64,000 nt of DNA from Eremomyces bilateralis CBS 781.70. Taxonomy: Eukaryota. A program made the translations under genes and the position numbers. How positions within the stretch are numbered: position 1 is the first letter of the stretch; each line of letters starts with the position of its first letter. Of the stretch, positions 51,442-58,919 are shown piece after piece. The stretch lies in the NCBI GenBank assembly GCA_010015585.1, contig ML975152.1; one strand, 5' to 3'. A model generated the notes under the pieces. That model saw only the letters and a list, made by a program, of their open reading frames with translations. It ran no database searches and was not told where the DNA came from.

Positions 51442-52148
51442 TCTCCTGCCGGACATATTTGGGTGCGGTCAACGTTATGAGCGTTGTGGCAGCCAGTCTC
51501 TGTATGTGTAGTTACCGGTTCATTGCATGGCGAATGGGCGCTTGGTCAATTCTGATAGAGCACTGCTTCTGGGTATAATGGCACGGTAAAACTAAGTAGT
51601 AATTACCATATCTTATATGCTCATAACGTCGTAATCTATGACTCTACGCTAGTAATAAATCTATAGGTATCATTATATCTGCCATTTCTCTTGTTTATGT
51701 GGTAGGATATTCTTCCTGATGAAAACACCACAGTCAAAGTGTCATTCGATCCGAAGTGGCGAAGCTCACGAAACCACCACAGTTTGATATCAACCTAACC
51801 CGTCACACATCAGCTTTGATATCGATCAAGATTTAATGGGGTACATTTTCTTATTAGGGACGTGCTTTTAACCATTTATACAGACAGGCAGTCGCTCCGC
51901 AAGGACATTTGCACTCGCCCTCGGGGTTTTCCACACTTCCGTGCGCAGTAGAGAAATCGAATATTTAAAGAGCTGGGAATCAGGAATACATCTTGCAAAC
52001 TTGTATCAACGAACTTCCCAAATTTGTCAAGGCCACCGTACGTCCTAGGAATCTGAGAAGCCATAATCTTTTCATCCTCTTTTAAAATTTCCTCCGCTCC
52101 CCACTTCTGGTCTAACACGAAGACATTTCCCTGCGGGTTTCACCCGAA

Positions 52149-53447
52149 ATGGACGACATAGGGGGCGGATCAATCCTCCTCATCCTCAACGTGCCCGAAG
52201 GCTCCCTAATCGGTATCAACCTCCTCTCCTTCACCACCACCCCCCGCTTCCACGGCATCAAGCACCTCCCCCCCGGTTTCCACTTCGTCTTCACCAGCGT
52301 CTCCAACACGCAGTCGATCCGCCAGGGCGTGTGGGTCGAAGTCCCCCGATCCGGATCCCGCGCCATCTCGCAATACGGCCCGCACATAATCTTGAAAAAA
52401 TGGGACCCTACCACCGAAAGCCTTGTGGACGAAACCTCCGACTCTGAACGCCTTCGCCACCGCGCGAACCTCGGCGCCATCTGGCGCGAGGGGCTGGTGC
52501 CGTATCTGCAGAGCGCGGACACCGCGGACGAGGAGGCGCAGGAGCAGGGGAAGGAGGAGTGGGCACAGATGACAACGCATGTGTCCGCGAGGCTGCTGGA
52601 CCGGGTGTTGGGGGAAAGGACGTGGGCGCTCAACTCGGCGAGCACGGCGCCGACGGACGCGGAGAAAATTCCCGGGATATCAGCGGAAGAGCATCAGGAG
52701 AAGGAGTTGGGGTTTTTGGTCGTTGATTTGCGGAGGACGTGGAAGGAGGATGCGACGGGGCGGGAGAGGACGGAGGCGGCGAGGGATCGGAGTTGGGCGT
52801 TGGGGGAGGCGGTGGAGAAGCATTGTTGGGGGAGTTGGGACGAGGTGGTGGGGGAGATGGAGGTGGCGTTTCTTATGGTGATGACGCTGAATAACTACTC
52901 GTGCTTGGAACAGTGGAAGAGACTCTTGGAGCTGGCGATGACGAGCAAGGCGGCGGTGAAGGATCACCCGGGGTTCTTTGTGGATGTGATGGAGATGCTT
53001 AGGTTGCAACTCGAGAAGAGCAGGAATGTTGAAGGCGGTGGGCTGTTCGATTTGTCGGATGATGGAGCGCCATTCCTTAAAGATTTGCTAAAGAAGTTCA
53101 GGAGGGGGTTGGATGATCTGGATGGGAAGGCGAAGGCGGACGTCTTGGATGAGCTGGATGAGCTGGAGCACTACCTCAAGGAAGTCCACAAATGGGAGAT
53201 CGATGCACCGTTTCTCCGGACGGGCATTTTGGAGCTCGAAGACGGCGAGACGGTCGAGATGGATGCAATGGGCAGGGATGACGAGGACGAAGAAGGCGAA
53301 TATGCCCCTCAAATAGTCGAGCTTACAGCAGAGCAAGCCAATGCTCTCGGTCACGATCACCAAGCCAAGAAATCGGAGGACGAGCTAGCACTCGCCGAGG
53401 AAGAAGAGGAAGAGCAAGACCTTGAAGAAATGGATGCGAGGTTTTGA
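52149..53447 (+). CDS. AAR2: U5 snRNP assembly factor Aar2
   Basis: Motifs LIGINLLSF..FHGIKHLPPGFHFV, RTEAARDRSWAL, GEMEVAFL, LEQWKRLL, acidic tail. Confidence 0.88.
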   Translation: MDDIGGGSILLILNVPEGSLIGINLLSFTTTPRFHGIKHLPPGFHFVFTSVSNTQSIRQGVWVEVPRSGSRAISQYGPHIILKKWDPTTESLVDETSDSERLRHRANLGAIWREGLVPYLQSADTADEEAQEQGKEEWAQMTTHVSARLLDRVLGERTWALNSASTAPTDAEKIPGISAEEHQEKELGFLVVDLRRTWKEDATGRERTEAARDRSWALGEAVEKHCWGSWDEVVGEMEVAFLMVMTLNNYSCLEQWKRLLELAMTSKAAVKDHPGFFVDVMEMLRLQLEKSRNVEGGGLFDLSDDGAPFLKDLLKKFRRGLDDLDGKAKADVLDELDELEHYLKEVHKWEIDAPFLRTGILELEDGETVEMDAMGRDDEDEEGEYAPQIVELTAEQANALGHDHQAKKSEDELALAEEEEEEQDLEEMDARF

Positions 53448-53593
53448 TGAACAGCTTTTACACCTGCTTAAAATGCTATTCTACTGTGACAGGATGTAGA
53501 GGACCAGGCAAAACGGCCGTTCCTCGCGTATTTGGGCGGTTACAAAAGCCACCAGTGCACCACAACCATCGCAAAATCCACCACGATCTCCAT

Positions 53594-54226
53594 CTAGAGA
53601 CGACGACCACGGCGACCTCCCTTCCTGCGCGTGGAATCGGAGGGAGTGGGGGTGACGTCCTCGATACGGCCGATCTTCATGCCTGAGCGAGCAAGAGCTC
53701 GGAGGGCAGATTGAGCACCTGGGCCAGGGGTCTTGGTGCCGTTACCTAGATTGATGTGAGTGAACTATTCGGATTGCTCGAGTGTTATGCGCCACATACC
53801 TCCAGTAGCCCGGATCTTGACGTGCAGAGCGGTGATACCCAGCTCCTTGCAGCGGATGGCGACATCCTGAGCAGCCAACATGGCAGCGTAGGGAGAAGAC
53901 TCGTCACGATCGGCCTTGACCTTCATGCCGCCGGTGACACGAGCGATGGTTTCGCGACCACTGAAATCCGATGTTAGTCTGGTCTCCTGATCCCTGGGAA
54001 TGTCATGTTGTATTCGTCCTACGAACCTGAGATCGGTGACATGGACGAAGGTGTCGTTGAAGGAAGCGAAGATTCGGGCAATACCGAAAACGAGTTCGCC
54101 TGGAGGTGGTATGTTAGCAGTCGATCCCTATACACAGGGAGCGTGATGGAATCGCATACCCTCGCGGACTTGAGGTCCAAGCTGGACATTCTCTTGGGGC
54201 TGAGCGACCCTCTTCTTAGGAGCCAT
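53594..54226 (-). CDS. RPS14: 40S ribosomal protein S14 (uS11), 4 exons; absent from the ORF track
   Basis: Spliced translation [66 protein letters not shown]. Introns 54159-54100, 54026-53961 and 53799-53746. Confidence 0.97.
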
Positions 54227-54664
54227 CTTTATTCGAGATTCTGGTAATGAACTCCTCGTGTGATGGGATGGATGGATGTGTATCAGAATTTCGTGAAGTT
54301 GTGGTCGCGAAAAGTTCGGGGAGGTTTTGGTGGTGGGCGAGGAAGCGAACCGAATGTGGCTAGTGTCTTAATCACGTGCTGTTGGCGCTTGAGCCTCAAC
54401 ACATCTACATTTTCTCGCGTTCACAGAAATTCCGGATTTCTTTAACTTCACATTCCATTCAAGCTTGTTTTCGTTTGTGTTGCGAGGCACCCTTTACTTC
54501 TACCTTTGGTTCTCTGGGTCAATCATCTTCTTGCTTGCGTTCATGTCATCTCAGACATAAACTTTGCCAGTATAGGCGCCTGGAAGTTCGATTTCATGCC
54601 TGTAATGGTGAAGATGACTCGCTCGTAAATTTTCCACCAAGACCCAACCGCATGACCAGTCAAC

Positions 54665-56605
54665 ATGTCAGACATCGCGGTGGGGATCATCGGGATGGGG
54701 GATATGGGGAAGATGTACGCTCGAAGGATAGGCGAAGCCGGATGGACGTAAGTTACTATTGACGAAGAATTCAGGACTGTGTGTCCCGAGCGAAGGTATG
54801 TTTCACTTCTCCTTCTATCTTTCGTCCATTGTATGATGACTTGAGCGCATTTGGCTCGAGTATGGCATTGTCTTTCGACCCGTGTCCGTTTTGGCCATGG
54901 GTTTGATCGACTTCGCTGTCTTTGATGAAAATTCTCAGCTACCTTAACAATTATTTTGTCTGACCCTTCACTTCACCCTACATCGTATCATCGCTAGTCA
55001 GGTCGAAACGATCGCTAACGGTCATGTATAGGCTCTCCAAGTAGTTGTGATCAGTGAAGCTGATTCGAAGGCTACCTTAGTGTCTATGCTTGTGATGTCC
55101 CAGAGAAGTACGAGGAATTACGCGAGGAATTCCAGACACATGTATGATTATCTAGTAGCCCGCCAAGGAAGAAATCAATTTATTCACATATCCTGTAGAA
55201 AAATGTCCATATCATGGAGAGCGGTCATCTCGTCTCGCGGTGTAGCGATTGGATCATGTACAGCGTCGAAGCCAAGAGCATCGGCGCGGTTGTTGCGCAA
55301 TTTGGTCCTTGTAAGGAGCGCCATCTATCACGACGTGTGATACAGGCTGACGTTGATGAAGCTACCAAAGTCGGAGCGATTGTTGGCGGGCAAACGTCAT
55401 GCAAAGCTCCCGAAATCGAAGCGTTCGAGACGTATCTGCCCAAAGATGTCGATATTGTCTCCTGCCACTCGCTCCATGGGCCCGCTGTTGACCCAAAGGG
55501 CCAGCCTCTGGTAAGTGTCCGTGGTATTCCATGATGGCAGCAATTGATTAGCATTTCCTAGGTCATAATCAAACACCGGGCGTCAGAAAAGAGCGCCCAG
55601 CTGGTCGAGAACATCCTATCCTGCTTCGAGTCGAAGACGGTCCATCTGACCGCCGAACAACACGACCGCATCACAGCGGATACGCAAGCCGTGACCCACG
55701 CTGCATTCCTCAGGTACGTCCTCGACTTGATAGTTCAATTCTATATGAAGCACTGACGTATGGGGTCACAGCATGGGCGCCGCCTGGCAAGCCAACCAAC
55801 AATTCCCCTGGGAGATCGCCCGCTACATCGGCGGGATCGAAAACGTCAAGATCAACGTCGCCCTGCGGATCTACTCCAACAAATGGCACGTATACGCCGG
55901 GCTCGCAATGCTCAACCCGTCCGCGAAGATCCAGATCCAGCAATACGCGACGTCGGTGACGGAGCTGTTCAAGCTAATGCTCAGCGGAAGACGAGCGGAA
56001 CTGACCGACCGGATCAAGGCGGCGGGGGCGGCAGTGTTCAAGGAGAGAGGGAACGACCCGGACTTGTTGCTGAAGGACGAGGTGCTGGATCGGTTCTCGT
56101 TGGGGGAGCTGCCGCCGGAGAAGGTGCCGAATAACCATCTGTCGCTGTTGGCGATGGTGGATTGTTGGTGGAAGTTGGGGATCGTGCCGTATGATCATAT
56201 GATTTGCTCGACGCCGGTGAGTTGGAGATGAGATCGTTAAATTCGTTCAATAACTAATTAGCGCGCAGCTCTTTCGCCTCTGGTTGGGGATCACCGAATA
56301 TGTGTTCCGAAATCCAGAGCTGCTTCAGGAGTGCATTGACACCTCCATTGAGGACAACACGTTCCGTATGGACGACCTTGAGTTCACATTTGCTGCCCGC
56401 GTAAGTTTCTCAGCACCGAATCTGTGTCAAGTCGCTCACCGCTTTTCAGGACTGGAGCCAACGAGTGCTCCTCGGAAACATGGATGTGTATCGGGAGAAG
56501 TTCGAGACGATACAGGCGTACTTCTCCCCACGATTCCCCGAAGCGACGAAGTTGGGAAATGAAATGATCAAGACAATACTTGAGAAGACGAAGGAGAAGG
56601 AGTGA
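54665..56605 (+). CDS. TYR1: Prephenate dehydrogenase (NADP+), multi-exon
   Basis: Motifs VGIIGMGDMGKMYA, GGQTSCKAPEI, SCHSLHGP, HDRITADTQAVTH, GGIENVKIN, NNHLSLLAMVDCW. First intron 54748-55080. Confidence 0.95.
54828..54966 (+). ncRNA. snR13: Intronic box C/D snoRNA, snR13-like
   Basis: Box C ATGATGA at 54833-54839, C' TGATGA at 54923-54928 and box D CTGA at 54960-54963. GCATTTGGCT (54847-54856) and GCTACCTTAA (54938-54947) are complementary to LSU rRNA UUAAGGUAGCCAAAUGC. The layout matches yeast snR13 as recalled; ends approximate. Confidence 0.85.
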
Positions 56606-57412
56606 TACTTATAGCTATGCTTACCGTACGACCGTAACTTGTCATGAGTTCAACACCGATGAATAAGATAGATCAATGATATGATATGCTTTGAAGCATA
56701 TCGTCTTCGCTATCAACAATAGCAATTGCATTGATTTTAACATGGCAAATTGATAGTGTTCGGGCGTCGGAGTTGGCTGAATACGGCAACCTAAACGATT
56801 AATATGACCATTTGAAATCAAATCGTCACATCTGATTCGCTATAGCACATGGAATTTTTGGATTGTCATGCAGCCCCACTGCCATGCTGCAACAACCATC
56901 AGATCTCATGTGGCCTGAACATCCTTCATGTCCTGCCCATTGTAGGCTGTAGTTGTATGCGGCACGGCCTGTTTCGGCAAAACGGCACATTTTTGCAGGA
57001 AAATCCGGGGATGTCGCCTCGATACCCTGCCCAGTGCCCAACACTGCACGTACCGTACTACCGTGCCAGTATGGGGTCGCAACCCTCCTGCTGCAACGAT
57101 TTCGGCAAACATACGCGGGGTTAATGAGGCAGGATGGGATATCATCTGGCGTCGGTCCACTCCTTACTTATGGTTGCATAAACGAAATTCGATTCTCTAC
57201 TGTCTTTACCGTCTACCTGTGGCAGCACACGCTTAGTTTTGCCAAGCACAGTTGGGTGAGCGAGACGAGATTTGTTCCAGACAAGTGACTGAACGGTCAA
57301 CATTTCCCCACATTCTTGCCAAGCGCGCTATCTCCGTCTTCCGTCCGAAGTCTTCCAAATTCCAATCCATTTCCCCTTCAGGGCATTCGAGAATTTCGAA
57401 CTGGCGGTGGCG

Positions 57413-58919
57413 ATGAGTGAAAAGTCGCAGTACGCTGCAAAATCGAGCTCGGCGGATGTGACGCTCAATGGGAACGGCCTCCCCGTGGGGCGGGCCATCG
57501 ACGAAGAAAAGCAATTGGGCCGGTCGAAAGAGCAAGGGAAGCAGGAGGACTATGAACAGGTGGTGCATGCCGAATATGAGGAGTCCACCGGACCGGAAGA
57601 CGTGACGGGTGAGCCGGCGGTGCGGATTGACTCCGTCAACAACCTCGATACGATCCCGAACGGGGGACTTCGCGCGTGGTGCCAGGTTGCGGGGAGCTTC
57701 TTCCTGTTTTTTAATACCTGGGGCATCATCAATTCGTTCGGCGTCTTCCAGGCGTTCTACACCACCGATTTCCTAAAGAGTATGACGCCGTCGACCATCG
57801 CGTGGATCGGGTCGATACAGGCGTTCCTGCTGCTGATGGTGGGGGCGCTGACGGGGCCGCTGTACGATGCCGGCTACTTTAGGTGGCTGCTCCGGATTGG
57901 GAGCGTGTTGATCGTGTTCGGGATGATGATGCTGAGCTTGGCCACGACGTATTGGCAGGCGTTGCTCGCTCAGGCGATTTGCGTGGGGCTGGGGATGGGG
58001 TGTCTGTTCGTTCCGTCCGTGGCGATATTGTCCACATACTTCACCACCAAGCTGGCATTTGCCATGGGGCTTGCTGCGTCAGGGAGTAGTTTCGGTACGT
58101 TCATCTTCCCTCTCTTTATGCCGGTCGACAGAGTCAATGTGGTTCGGCAAGAACTAACAATCATCAGGTGGCATCATTTATCCGATCCTCTTGAACAAGC
58201 TCATTCCCAAGTTGGGATTCGGATGGTCAGTACGAATATTCGCATTCATCGCCATGGCGACATTAATCGTGCCGAATACCTTTATGAGAGTTCGCGTGCT
58301 TCCAGACGAAAAGAGAAAGCTGTACGACATGACTGCGTGGAGGGAGCGGCCCTTCGTCTATTATGTGATCGGAGGCTTTTTCGGTTTCATGGGTCTCTAC
58401 TGCCCATTCTATTACATGCAGTCCTTCTCTCTCTACCACGGCATTGCGGACAAGGAACTGGCCTTCTATTTCCTGGCCATTATCAACGCCGCGTCGACCT
58501 TCGGCCGGATTCTTCCGAACTTCGTCGCGGACAAAGCCGGGCCGCTGAACATTCTCATGCCGTGTGCGGTTCTCACGGGCGTAGTGGAGCTCGGCCTGAT
58601 CGGTTGCCGAGATCTGGCCAGCCTCATTGTCATCTGCGTGCTCTTCGGGTTCTTCTCGGGGACGTTTGTGTCGTTGTCCCCCGCGGCTCTGGTCCAAATT
58701 ACACGGAATCGTGGAATGATAGGTACGAGAATGGGCATGTGCTTCACTGTTACCTCCTTCGGAACGCTCGTCGGCATGCCCATTGCCGGTGCGATCCTGA
58801 CCGCGTCCTCGTATACTTACATCTGGGTATTCGGCGGTGTCCTTACCATTGTTGGCGCTTCCTTTATGGCTACGGCCCGAGTAGCCCACGTTGGGTGGGG
58901 CCTCACCACCAAAGCATGA
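57413..58919 (+). CDS. MFS monocarboxylate-transporter-like protein (Mch family), 2 exons
   Basis: Motifs PNGGLRAWCQVAGSF, NTWGIINSFGVFQ, GPLYDAG, NAASTFGRILP, GTRMGM. Intron ~58095-58167. Confidence 0.92.

Follow-up and report, generated by a model that had tools for sequence, protein, structure and literature searches.

Intron 1 of a TYR1-like gene of Eremomyces is an intron within an intron: an inner and an outer spliceosomal intron, the one lying inside the other, each have a complete set of donor, branch element and acceptor. Both the inner and the outer junction are present in assembled RNA, and the double set of signals recurs in most orthologous introns that we collected from metagenomes. 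Within the inner intron lies a box C/D snoRNA whose sequence identifies it as orthologous to Nc CD1 of Neurospora crassa and snR13 of yeast. Probably, the inner intron is removed first and serves as a snoRNA-processing unit. Below, we describe the locus, its cargo and its conservation, and weigh the routes by which it may be spliced.

Anatomy and transcripts of the nested intron

We analysed a window of 64,000 nt, meaning the whole stretch of DNA to which all coordinates refer. The features of intron 1 and its borders are as follows.

54665..54747, + strand: TYR1-like exon 1, with its ATG at 54665 and a 3' end that supplies 2 nt of a split codon; translation MSDIAVGIIGMGDMG..GW
54748..55080, + strand: outer (external) intron, 333 nt; from the sequence and the GT..AG joint 54747->55081 in run X3
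54748-54753, + strand: outer donor GTAAGT, from the sequence
54748..54795, + strand: 5' flank of the outer intron, 48 nt, retained in inner-spliced RNA (contig 54718-54796)
54796..55031, + strand: inner (internal) intron, 236 nt; from the sequence, the joint 54795->55032 and equivalent signals in 58/66 orthologous introns among the matches listed
54796-54801, + strand: inner donor GTATGT, from the sequence
55014-55019, + strand: inner branch GCTAAC, from the sequence
55029-55031, + strand: inner acceptor TAG, from the sequence
55032..55080, + strand: 3' flank of the outer intron, 49 nt, retained in inner-spliced RNA and containing the outer branch and acceptor (contig 55030-55110)
55059-55064, + strand: outer branch GCTGAT, from the sequence
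55078-55080, + strand: outer acceptor TAG, from the sequence
55081..55141, + strand: TYR1-like exon 2, bounded by joints 54747/55081 and 55141/55199; translation VYACDVPEKYEE.., conserved in metagenome loci

A preliminary description of this DNA had proposed these splice motifs, intron sizes of 333, 236 and 97 nt, and a reading frame restored by the outer junction only; the sequence bears out each of these. The inner intron starts 42 nt past the outer donor hexamer and ends 27 nt ahead of the outer branch element, and its removal leaves a residual outer intron of 97 nt (333 - 236). The frame is preserved by the outer junction alone (..GW T|VYACD..); a transcript unspliced at the outer donor continues ACG TAA and meets an in-frame stop. 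The inner intron folds with no unusual stability (z -0.99), being equalled or surpassed by 34 of 200 shuffles, and from this comparison we make no claim of an intron-closing helix.

The RNA evidence comes from one public run, X3, whose type was guessed as RNA and which consists of contigs rather than reads, with neither strand nor lariat information; its sample and study differ from those of the DNA runs X1 and X2. X3 contigs skip all five GT..AG intervals examined, and DNA run X1 is colinear with the locus and free of joints. Two further runs, X4 and X5, contributed nothing. The two junctions anticipated by the preliminary description, 54795/55032 and 54747/55081, are both found in X3. The mature joint 54747/55081 lies in one contig of depth 608, and an RNA contig stops at 54747, the end of exon 1. 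The inner joint also lies in one contig, of depth 513, which was mapped as 54793->55030 and is read as 54795->55032, a GT..AG interval, with the cut shifted by 2. Two contigs read across the outer sites, 54718-54796 over the donor and 55030-55110 over the acceptor, at depths of 633 and 712, contig depth being a crude measure that is unsuitable for ranking parts of one gene. Contig 54767-55059 indicates that the snoRNA region is transcribed, and the other introns of the gene have almost no retained depth in X3.

Two points concern the relation between these products. The mature junction is also obtainable by one-step removal of the whole 333 nt. The similar depths of the inner-spliced and mature contigs, crude as they are, fit either a second step that is slow or an inner-spliced RNA that is a side product; the available text of PMC8469720 describes stwintron intermediates as, in general, much less abundant than the spliced product.

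On sequence grounds, the host is a putative TYR1-like prephenate dehydrogenase gene. This family assignment rests on an orthologue, L001, because exon 6 of the Eremomyces gene, its largest exon, gave no match in Pfam, NCBIfam or PDB when scanned alone. L001 shares 71% identity with the window protein (residues 29-341), scores 27.1 bits against Pfam PDH_C (cutoff 22), and matches eight prephenate dehydrogenase models of NCBIfam, with a best E of 2.6e-21 and each match under the curated cutoff. Three of the remaining introns of the gene, with RNA joints, measure 57, 51 and 51 nt, and a loose contig end at 55713 is compatible with a further intron of 58 nt. For another host gene, the downstream open reading frame had no Pfam match.

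The snoRNA of the inner intron

The preliminary description had also placed a snoRNA within the inner intron, and its boxes and guide identity make it a box C/D RNA of the Nc CD1 / snR13 type. Its predicted elements are listed here.

54829..54965, ends approximate, + strand: box C/D snoRNA, orthologue of Nc CD1 / snR13; from Rfam and comparison with Nc CD1
54833-54839, + strand: C box ATGATGA
54847-54856, + strand: D' guide GCATTTGGCT
54856-54860, + strand: degenerate D' (TCGA/CGAG), adjoining the guide
54923-54928, + strand: C' box TGATGA
54934-54946, + strand: conserved accessory element CTCAGCTACCTTA
54960-54963, + strand: D box CTGA

The candidate has the features that define the class: a C box (RUGAUGA) near the 5' end, a D box (CUGA) near the 3' end, and internal C' and D' elements. 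Its sole Rfam match is snR13 (RF01223), at 14.9 bits and E 3.2, below the family's gathering score of 47 bits; the alignment is good only in the 5' half, which is near-identical. At gathering scores, an Rfam scan of the whole window returned no families, and at E<=1 a scan of 52000-58000 gave no match within intron 1. A weak match to archaeal sR14 at 55323-55377 in the E<=1 scan was taken as chance.

Comparison by eye with the Nc CD1 sequence in the supplement of PMC2780460 is more informative on the orthologue assignment: 28 of 30 positions are identical from the C box onward, 23 of 24 agree in the stretch that starts with C' and includes the accessory element, and the guide is identical. The TYR1 snoRNA thus shares with Nc CD1 and snR13 an identical C box, the 10-nt D' guide GCAUUUGGCU, the C' box, the accessory element CUCAGCUACCUUA and a length of ~125-137 nt, and it is intronic, as the Neurospora copy is. 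It differs from them in its central variable region and in missing the Rfam gathering score. In the available text of PMC2780460, the Nc CD1 guide pairs with rRNA 5'-AGCCAAAUGC-3' and its target is 26S-Am2242. By homology with Nc CD1, the snoRNA described here would direct 2'-O-methylation of one A within this stretch of large-subunit rRNA. The main text of that paper, with its Table 1, and two supplementary files (Additional files 1 and 4) neither name the Neurospora host gene nor mention nesting.

In the window, the inner donor lies ~40 nt 5' of box C, the inner branch ~50 nt 3' of box D, and the acceptor ~13 nt beyond the branch.

Conservation across fungi

A metagenome scan with the snoRNA guide pattern found at least 113 loci. 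Among the matches listed, the snoRNA of 93 loci is flanked by a TYR1 exon on one side or both, and 78 loci have both borders; exon 1 was detected by tblastn 5' of the snoRNA in most of the loci listed. The 78 bordered loci and the window gave 66 distinct TYR1 intron-1 sequences among these matches, in which we searched for an inner donor (GTRNGY) and an inner branch with acceptor (CTRAY..AG).

Both inner elements are present in 58 of the 66 distinct introns among the matches listed, as the preliminary description had anticipated in naming their conservation in orthologues as a check, and in most of the orthologues listed a second CTRAY branch precedes the outer acceptor. Shuffling yields the double set in a mean of 3.4 introns of 66 (maximum 10 in 500 shuffles). 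With the elements held at fixed distances from the snoRNA, the count among the matches listed is 54/66, against a shuffle mean of 0.25 and a maximum of 4. The antisense strand contains one double set without positional limits and none with them. Positions outside the search pattern also fit splice-site consensus among the listed matches: the inner donor is preceded by G in 48/58 (flank G content 0.17), CTRAY is preceded by G in 49/58, and position -3 of the inner acceptor is C or T in 51/58. The RNA junctions and this conservation establish that the double set of signals is more than chance.

Spacing is likewise constrained in the nested orthologues among the matches listed. The median distance is 43 nt from inner donor to box C and 53 nt from box D to branch (range 47-70), and the median inner intron measures 242 nt. 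The residual outer intron has a median of 108 nt and, across the 58 nested orthologues listed, a minimum of 74 nt; it is therefore always larger than the small introns seen in the TYR1-like gene.

The 66 introns form 43 clusters without detectable flank similarity, and in 38 of these 43, among the matches listed, every member is nested. A TYR1 tree, midpoint-rooted for drawing only, has nested introns on both sides of its deepest split. Exceptions among the listed introns are of two kinds. Five of the 66 lack one consensus element: L028, L052 and L081 have GTTCGT and L075 has GTAAGA at the place of the donor, and L045 is without CTRAY. Three (L054, L085 and L001) lack both inner elements and have a single simple intron, and because of these three, nesting is dispensable for mRNA and snoRNA alike.

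Splicing route, precedents and significance

Intron 1 is best read as a nested spliceosomal intron of the class called stwintron sensu lato and, with somewhat better than even confidence, as one spliced from the inside out through a productive intermediate. The inner intron (54796-55031) would be a self-contained snoRNA-processing unit, excised first; its lariat would then be debranched and trimmed to the snoRNA. There would remain a 97-nt intron built of the two flanks, of ordinary fungal size and with an in-frame stop at its start, which a second reaction would splice out to give the in-frame mRNA. The arrangement likely arose when a snoRNA-bearing intron was inserted into a pre-existing TYR1 intron.

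The class, a canonical U2 intron nested in a canonical U2 intron, is described for a Lipomyces reticulon-like gene in the available text of PMC7138796 and also appears in that of PMC8469720; both document inside-out excision of nested canonical introns in fungi. The TYR1 locus has the corresponding features. Firstly, both of its nested introns are of the canonical U2 type and possess separate donors, branch elements and acceptors. Secondly, the inner intron interrupts no signal of the outer one, and because the genomic DNA already contains GTAAGT, GCTGAT and TAG of the outer intron unbroken, a classical [D], [L] or [A] stwintron is excluded. Finally, RNA that lacks the inner intron and keeps the outer one is represented, in contigs of one run, by the 54795/55032 joint and the read-through contigs. 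As in Lipomyces, the host is an ascomycete protein-coding gene and inner-spliced, outer-retaining RNA is detectable. Unlike the Lipomyces case, the TYR1 inner intron has a functional cargo, a box C/D snoRNA placed at fixed distances from the inner splice sites, the nesting is deep, with flanks of 48 and 49 nt instead of abutting donors, and it is kept in 38/43 flank-unrelated lineages among the matches listed; inside-out order is here an inference.

Two other systems offer partial parallels. Polycistronic snoRNA hosts of Candida and other fungi (PMC5033589; PMC3596301) share complex stepwise removal and snoRNA introns that behave as movable units. Those hosts are non-coding RNAs with adjacent or overlapping introns and a snoRNA in each, whereas TYR1 has a single snoRNA intron wholly within a cargo-free intron of a protein-coding gene, where the second step must restore the frame. 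Nested splicing seen by spliceosome profiling in Cryptococcus neoformans (bioRxiv 10.1101/224170) likewise places an inner intron in an unusually long one (391 nt, against 333 nt here). The available text of that report mentions no snoRNA cargo, and its inner event is invisible in polyA RNA-seq, whereas the TYR1 inner-spliced RNA was assembled at high depth.

Nesting itself therefore has precedent in the available texts of PMC7138796 and PMC8469720, and the snoRNA cargo is the new element relative to this published class. Our literature search found no description of a stwintron with snoRNA cargo, no stwintron in a prephenate dehydrogenase and no snoRNA in a prephenate dehydrogenase intron, although the per-family tables of PMC5824354 may bear on host-gene context. 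Stwintron and snoRNA occurred together only in PMC8469720, in whose available text snoRNA figures merely in a remark on Rfam. The terms prephenate, snoRNA, nucleolar and sensu lato are absent from the available part of the PMC9024468 supplement.

The main competitor to inside-out splicing, possible but clearly less probable, holds that the two pairs of sites are alternatives: one-step removal of the 333 nt would give the mRNA, and inner splicing would give the snoRNA together with a stop-bearing, non-productive RNA that is degraded or accumulates. Near-equal depths of the inner-junction and mature contigs and the deep read-through of the outer sites, set against the almost unretained other introns, would suit it, except that contig depth is an unreliable measure. 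It also gains from the stop that directly follows the split codon in 61/66 orthologous introns, and from stop-forming triplets at donor positions +2 to +4 in 61/66 outer as against 36/58 inner donors, all among the matches listed; moreover, fungal snoRNA host transcripts are known to be alternatively spliced (PMC5033589 and the available text of PMC2780460). Nevertheless, the outer sites are intact after inner splicing and delimit a 97-nt intron of normal size, with nothing visible that prevents its excision, and a pure one-step route has no need of the residual outer intron of at least 74 nt kept in the 58 nested orthologues listed. Skipping the stronger and nearer inner donor and branch should, in addition, yield cross-junctions between outer and inner sites; none is among the joints listed for X3, a weak argument in that contigs drop rare forms. 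Nor is 54747/55032 listed, subject to the same loss of rare variants, and the control point that the preliminary description had seen in use of the outer donor with the 55031 acceptor has so far gained no support. Were the two pairs alternatives, snoRNA output would be uncoupled from TYR1 protein, as in the non-coding or NMD-targeted isoforms of snoRNA host genes.

An extended form of the inside-out reading is improbable. It supposes that an autonomous snoRNA intron landed as a cassette in a pre-existing TYR1 intron before the sampled Pezizomycotina diverged, and was kept because obligatory inside-out splicing holds back maturation of the TYR1 mRNA until the snoRNP has assembled and the cassette is gone; through the stop-bearing inner-spliced RNA, acting as a regulated checkpoint, ribosome biogenesis would then be tied to the synthesis of aromatic amino acids. 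The related proposal in the preliminary description, that rRNA modification is coupled to tyrosine synthesis, is so far supported only in the trivial sense that the snoRNA is intronic.

Recursive splicing through a zero-length exon, or two tandem introns with 54748-54795 as a mini-intron whose AG precedes a regenerated donor GTATGT, is very improbable and we reject it. An AG does adjoin the inner donor in the window (..gcgaag|GTATGT), resembling a ratchet point, and recursive splicing is known in fungi (bioRxiv 10.1101/224170, available text); however, no 54747/54796 joint is among those listed for X3 contigs, contig 54718-54796 is continuous, the observed inner junction retains the 5' flank, and a separate branch and acceptor lie in the downstream flank. 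Nor is AG|GT conserved, position -2 of the inner donor being T in 42/58 and A in 13/58 among the matches listed. Equally remote, and close to refuted, is an origin of the inner signals by chance, with the inner junction a product of splicing noise or of faulty assembly in one data set: the junction is backed by one RNA run, as contigs, and GTRNGY and CTRAY are short enough for shuffled flanks to give both in ~5% of introns, but the orthologue counts with and without fixed distances, the antisense control, the context positions and a junction contig whose depth is of the same order as that of exon junctions all stand against it.

Until now, nested spliceosomal introns of fungi have mostly been regarded as oddities of intron evolution. 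The inner intron of TYR1 has a clear function: it carries a conserved rRNA-methylation guide at a spacing apparently required by snoRNA processing, and in dozens of lineages the double architecture has outlasted complete replacement of the intron sequence around it. In gene predictions and in snoRNA catalogues, the locus probably figures as one long intron, and the inner-spliced, stop-bearing RNA may be misread as intron retention. The locus offers a functional reason for retaining an intron inside an intron. It is also a concrete case in which to ask whether the snoRNA and protein outputs of a host gene come at each other's expense and, in organisms that define introns, not exons, a natural setting for tests of how the order of splice sites is imposed.

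A box C/D snoRNA in a nested TYR1 intron

Intron 1 of the TYR1-like gene is a stwintron sensu lato, a canonical intron within a canonical intron, and the inner of the two is a conserved snoRNA cassette. The two sets of splice signals lie exactly where the preliminary description had placed them, and the snoRNA boxes were located by eye.

Features of TYR1 intron 1 (window coordinates)
54665–54747: exon 1, from the ATG
54748–55080: outer intron, 333 nt; donor GTAAGT, branch GCTGAT at 55059, acceptor TAG ending at 55080
54796–55031: inner intron, 236 nt; donor GTATGT at 54796, branch GCTAAC at 55014, acceptor TAG ending at 55031
54833–54839: box C, ATGATGA
54923–54928: box C′, TGATGA
54960–54963: box D, CTGA

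Without the inner intron, flanks of 48 + 49 = 97 nt remain. Translation (..EAGW-T-VYACD..) upholds the earlier claim that the outer junction alone keeps the reading frame; reading on past the outer donor meets a stop at once (ACG TAA). The spliced protein begins with a dinucleotide-binding-type motif, GIIGMGDMG, and its largest exon alone has no match in Pfam, NCBIfam or PDB. At the sequence level, a TYR1-like prephenate dehydrogenase is supported through a metagenome orthologue, L001 (71% identical to the window protein over residues 29–341), because L001 matches Pfam PDH_C above cutoff (27.1 vs 22 bits) and eight NCBIfam prephenate dehydrogenase models (bacteria/archaea; best E 2.6e-21, all under the curated cutoffs). 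Further along the gene, 55323–55377, a stretch that takes in intron 3 (51 nt) and the beginning of exon 4, gives a weak Rfam match to the archaeal snoRNA sR14 (22.9 bits, gathering 38, E 0.0058), which is probably a chance match.

Rfam gave no match within intron 1 at E ≤ 1 in a search across 6 kb, and a scan of the window at gathering scores yielded no family. With the search limited to 54810–54985, the sole match was snR13 (RF01223; 14.9 bits, E 3.2, gathering 47), weak as a whole yet almost letter-perfect in its 5′ half. In yeast, snR13 guides Am2280/Am2281. The Neurospora crassa snR13 homologue, Nc CD1, is a 125-nt RNA from chromosome III with its location given as "Intron", and it targets 26S-Am2242 via its D′ guide (PMC2780460). 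By eye, the window agrees with the Nc CD1 sequence (PMC2780460, Additional file 1) at 28/30 positions from the C box (54834–54863) and at 23/24 from C′ to the end of a conserved element, CTCAGCTACCTTA (54923–54946). The guide GCAUUUGGCU, paired in Nc CD1 with rRNA 5′-AGCCAAAUGC-3′ (PMC2780460, Additional file 4), is identical in the window at 54847–54856. Given these matching stretches and the identical guide, the snoRNA is, as judged from its sequence, an orthologue of Nc CD1/snR13, and we infer by homology that its rRNA target is that of Nc CD1. The element CTCAGCTACCTTA (54934–54946) lies between C′ and D, 13 nt from box D. It is conserved in Nc CD1 and, among the matches listed, in almost every locus, while the bases adjoining box D vary. 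It may be an accessory element that pairs with rRNA beside the methylation target.

Conservation and geometry of the inner intron

The C box and guide pattern picked out at least 113 loci in metagenome contigs (flanks of up to 2.5 kb for 80, 300 nt for the remainder), which were sorted by tblastn with the window protein and by an exon border search. A snoRNA of the same type is present in 113/113 loci listed. Among these matches, 93/113 have a TYR1 exon on one or both sides, 78/113 have both TYR1 exon borders, and 19/113 lack a TYR1 exon on both sides; L009, which the D-box parser did not resolve, is by eye of TYR1 type and nested. Together with the window, the 78 loci among the matches listed make 79 introns with 66 distinct sequences, and since all have the snoRNA inside TYR1 intron 1, this arrangement is widespread.

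Inner signals were scored as GTRNGY (donor) and as CTRAY with an AG downstream (branch and acceptor). Among the matches listed, the donor is found in 59/66 distinct introns, branch plus acceptor in 62/66, both together in 58/66 and neither in 3/66. Conservation in orthologues, a check named in the preliminary description, is borne out: 58/66 compares with a mean of 3.4 and a maximum of 10 in 500 flank shuffles, and with 1 in antisense. A positional test (donor 30–60 nt before box C, branch 45–72 nt after box D, AG within 20 nt) was passed by 54/66 introns among the matches listed, vs a mean of 0.25 and a maximum of 4 in 500 flank shuffles, and 0 in antisense. Positions outside the search pattern agree with splice consensus as well: G is found at −1 of the inner donor in 48/58 (flank G content 0.17), G precedes the inner CTRAY in 49/58, and C or T stands at −3 of the inner acceptor in 51/58. 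The remaining five introns lack one consensus element each: four have an off-consensus donor at the expected place (GTTCGT in L028, L052 and L081; GTAAGA in L075), and L045 lacks CTRAY. Because kinship inflates such counts, flanks were grouped by blastn, which gave 43 clusters without detectable similarity to one another; 38 are wholly nested, 2 are simple and 3 contain off-consensus cases.

In L054 (243 nt), L085 (247 nt) and L001, the three with neither inner signal, the snoRNA sits in a simple TYR1 intron that has a single donor and a single branch plus acceptor. The 40 rows that cover 60% or more of residues 86–335 went into a TYR1 tree, from which L054 and L085 were left out for low coverage. 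In this tree, with midpoint rooting only, the deepest, well-supported split has nested introns on both sides, and L001 falls inside one of the two groups, amid nested lineages. The simple introns of L054 and L085 have inner-intron geometry (48–52 nt before box C, 68–69 nt after box D), and L054 also lacks the next introns, residues 22–186 being matched in one piece.

Spacing in 58 nested introns
Inner intron length: median 242 nt, range 225–298
Donor to box C: median 43 nt
Box D to branch: median 53 nt, range 47–70
Box D to inner AG: median 69 nt
5′ flank: median 52 nt
3′ flank: median 52 nt
Residual outer intron: median 108 nt, range 74–227

The spacing around the snoRNA is tight whereas the flanks vary freely, which points to the inner intron as the constrained unit and recalls the position-dependent processing of intronic box C/D snoRNAs in mammals. 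In N. crassa, 41–60 nt separate the 5′ splice site from intronic snoRNAs (PMC2780460), a distance that the inner donor of the window fits and the outer donor does not.

Across the orthologous introns, outer branches are CTGAT (16), CTAAC (14), CTGAC (14) and CTAAT (8), and inner branches CTAAC (29), CTGAC (23) and CTAAT (10). Outer donors lack G at +5 in 29/66 (GTAAAT and similar), and all 29 follow an exonic GAG that may make up for it. In 61/66 outer donors, a TAA, TAG or TGA stands in frame right behind the split codon. Selection favouring early termination in RNA that is unspliced or half-spliced could account for this, as could mere common ancestry; such triplets also occupy +2 to +4 of 36/58 inner donors.

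Splice junctions and the order of excision

Five public sequencing runs were listed. X1 and X2 are DNA, probably of the source sample; X3, from another sample and study, contains 0.76 of sampled words, and its RNA type is guessed. Over 54450–55750, X1 is colinear with zero joints, and X3 is cDNA-like, with a GT..AG interval skipped by its contigs in five places. The small introns 55142–55198, 55311–55361 and 55510–55560 account for three of them. The others are the mature (54747/55081) and intermediate (54795/55032) junctions that the preliminary description had named as a test: the joint 54747→55081 skips 333 nt (contig depth 608), and the joint 54793→55030, which skips 236 nt (depth 513), equals GT..AG 54795→55032 with the cut set two places to the right. 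Further X3 contigs are unspliced at the outer donor (54718–54796, depth 633), at both inner sites (54767–55059, depth 278) and at the outer acceptor (55030–55110, depth 712). No joint of an outer with an inner site is among the X3 joints listed for 54450–55750, where rare variants drop out of contigs. This RNA support comes from one run, as contigs, with a single depth figure each that is unfit for ranking parts of the gene. The exon-1 contig (54493–54747) has a depth of 1929 vs 561 for the contig across exons 2–5 (55081–55648). Early termination, 5′ bias or the decay of half-spliced RNA may explain the excess, contig depth being too crude a measure to choose among them.

The distance between the outer sites, 312 nt with the inner intron in place, falls to 76 nt once it is removed, and strong inner sites lie near the snoRNA. 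In fungi, splice sites pair with their nearest partners across the intron, which underlies the excision of stwintrons from the inside out (PMC7138796, in excerpt). The inner intron would therefore be expected to leave first and the 97-nt remainder next, with the snoRNA maturing from the inner lariat. The X3 data, with intermediate-like RNA present and cross-junctions not assembled, fit this inner-first course and do not prove it. We consider two-step splicing the probable main productive route, if by no wide measure. The inner-spliced RNA might instead be mainly a non-productive alternative, which we regard as rather unlikely. In favour of this alternative, the inner-spliced contig is of much the same depth as the mature one (513 vs 608, a crude comparison), whereas stwintron intermediates are as a rule considerably less abundant than the product (PMC8469720, in excerpt). 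Against it, the residual outer intron is at least 74 nt in all 58 introns and so never shorter than the ordinary small introns of the TYR1 gene, a length that a second splicing step would need and a one-step route would not. Mixtures and artefacts take the small share of probability that is left. The key prediction of the preliminary description is borne out by both junctions in RNA and by the comparative data. Its nested-splicing reading is plausible and in part supported; a single step could also yield the mature junction. The regulatory reading attached to it is unsupported.

Nested introns and the proposed mobility of snoRNA introns

Nested canonical introns are a published class, stwintrons sensu lato (PMC7138796, PMC8469720), nested splicing has been seen in C. 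neoformans (bioRxiv 10.1101/224170), and snoRNA introns of non-coding polycistronic hosts are known to be spliced in stepwise, nested and recursive fashion (PMC3596301, PMC5033589; all in excerpt). Snippets of PMC3596301 also propose that snoRNA-bearing introns move as units, and such movement would account for an intron lying within another. In line with that proposal, 19/113 loci among the matches listed carry the same snR13-type snoRNA in an apparently simple intron of another conserved host gene (L008, L011, L024, L026, L034, L037, L038, L046, L056, L057, L068, L093, L094, L097, L101, L102, L104, L107 and L110). In these introns the donor lies ~40–47 nt before box C, and the snoRNA is 77–119 nt long with a shorter central region. 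Several share exon ends (..PYY upstream of the intron, DEAGF.. downstream), and a Pfam search with the L008 ORF downstream of the intron found nothing. The literature consulted, mostly outside subscription journals, described neither a snoRNA-carrying inner intron within an intron of a protein-coding gene nor a mention of the TYR1 snoRNA intron. Nested canonical introns as such were already known; what is new relative to that literature is a conserved snoRNA cassette as the inner intron.
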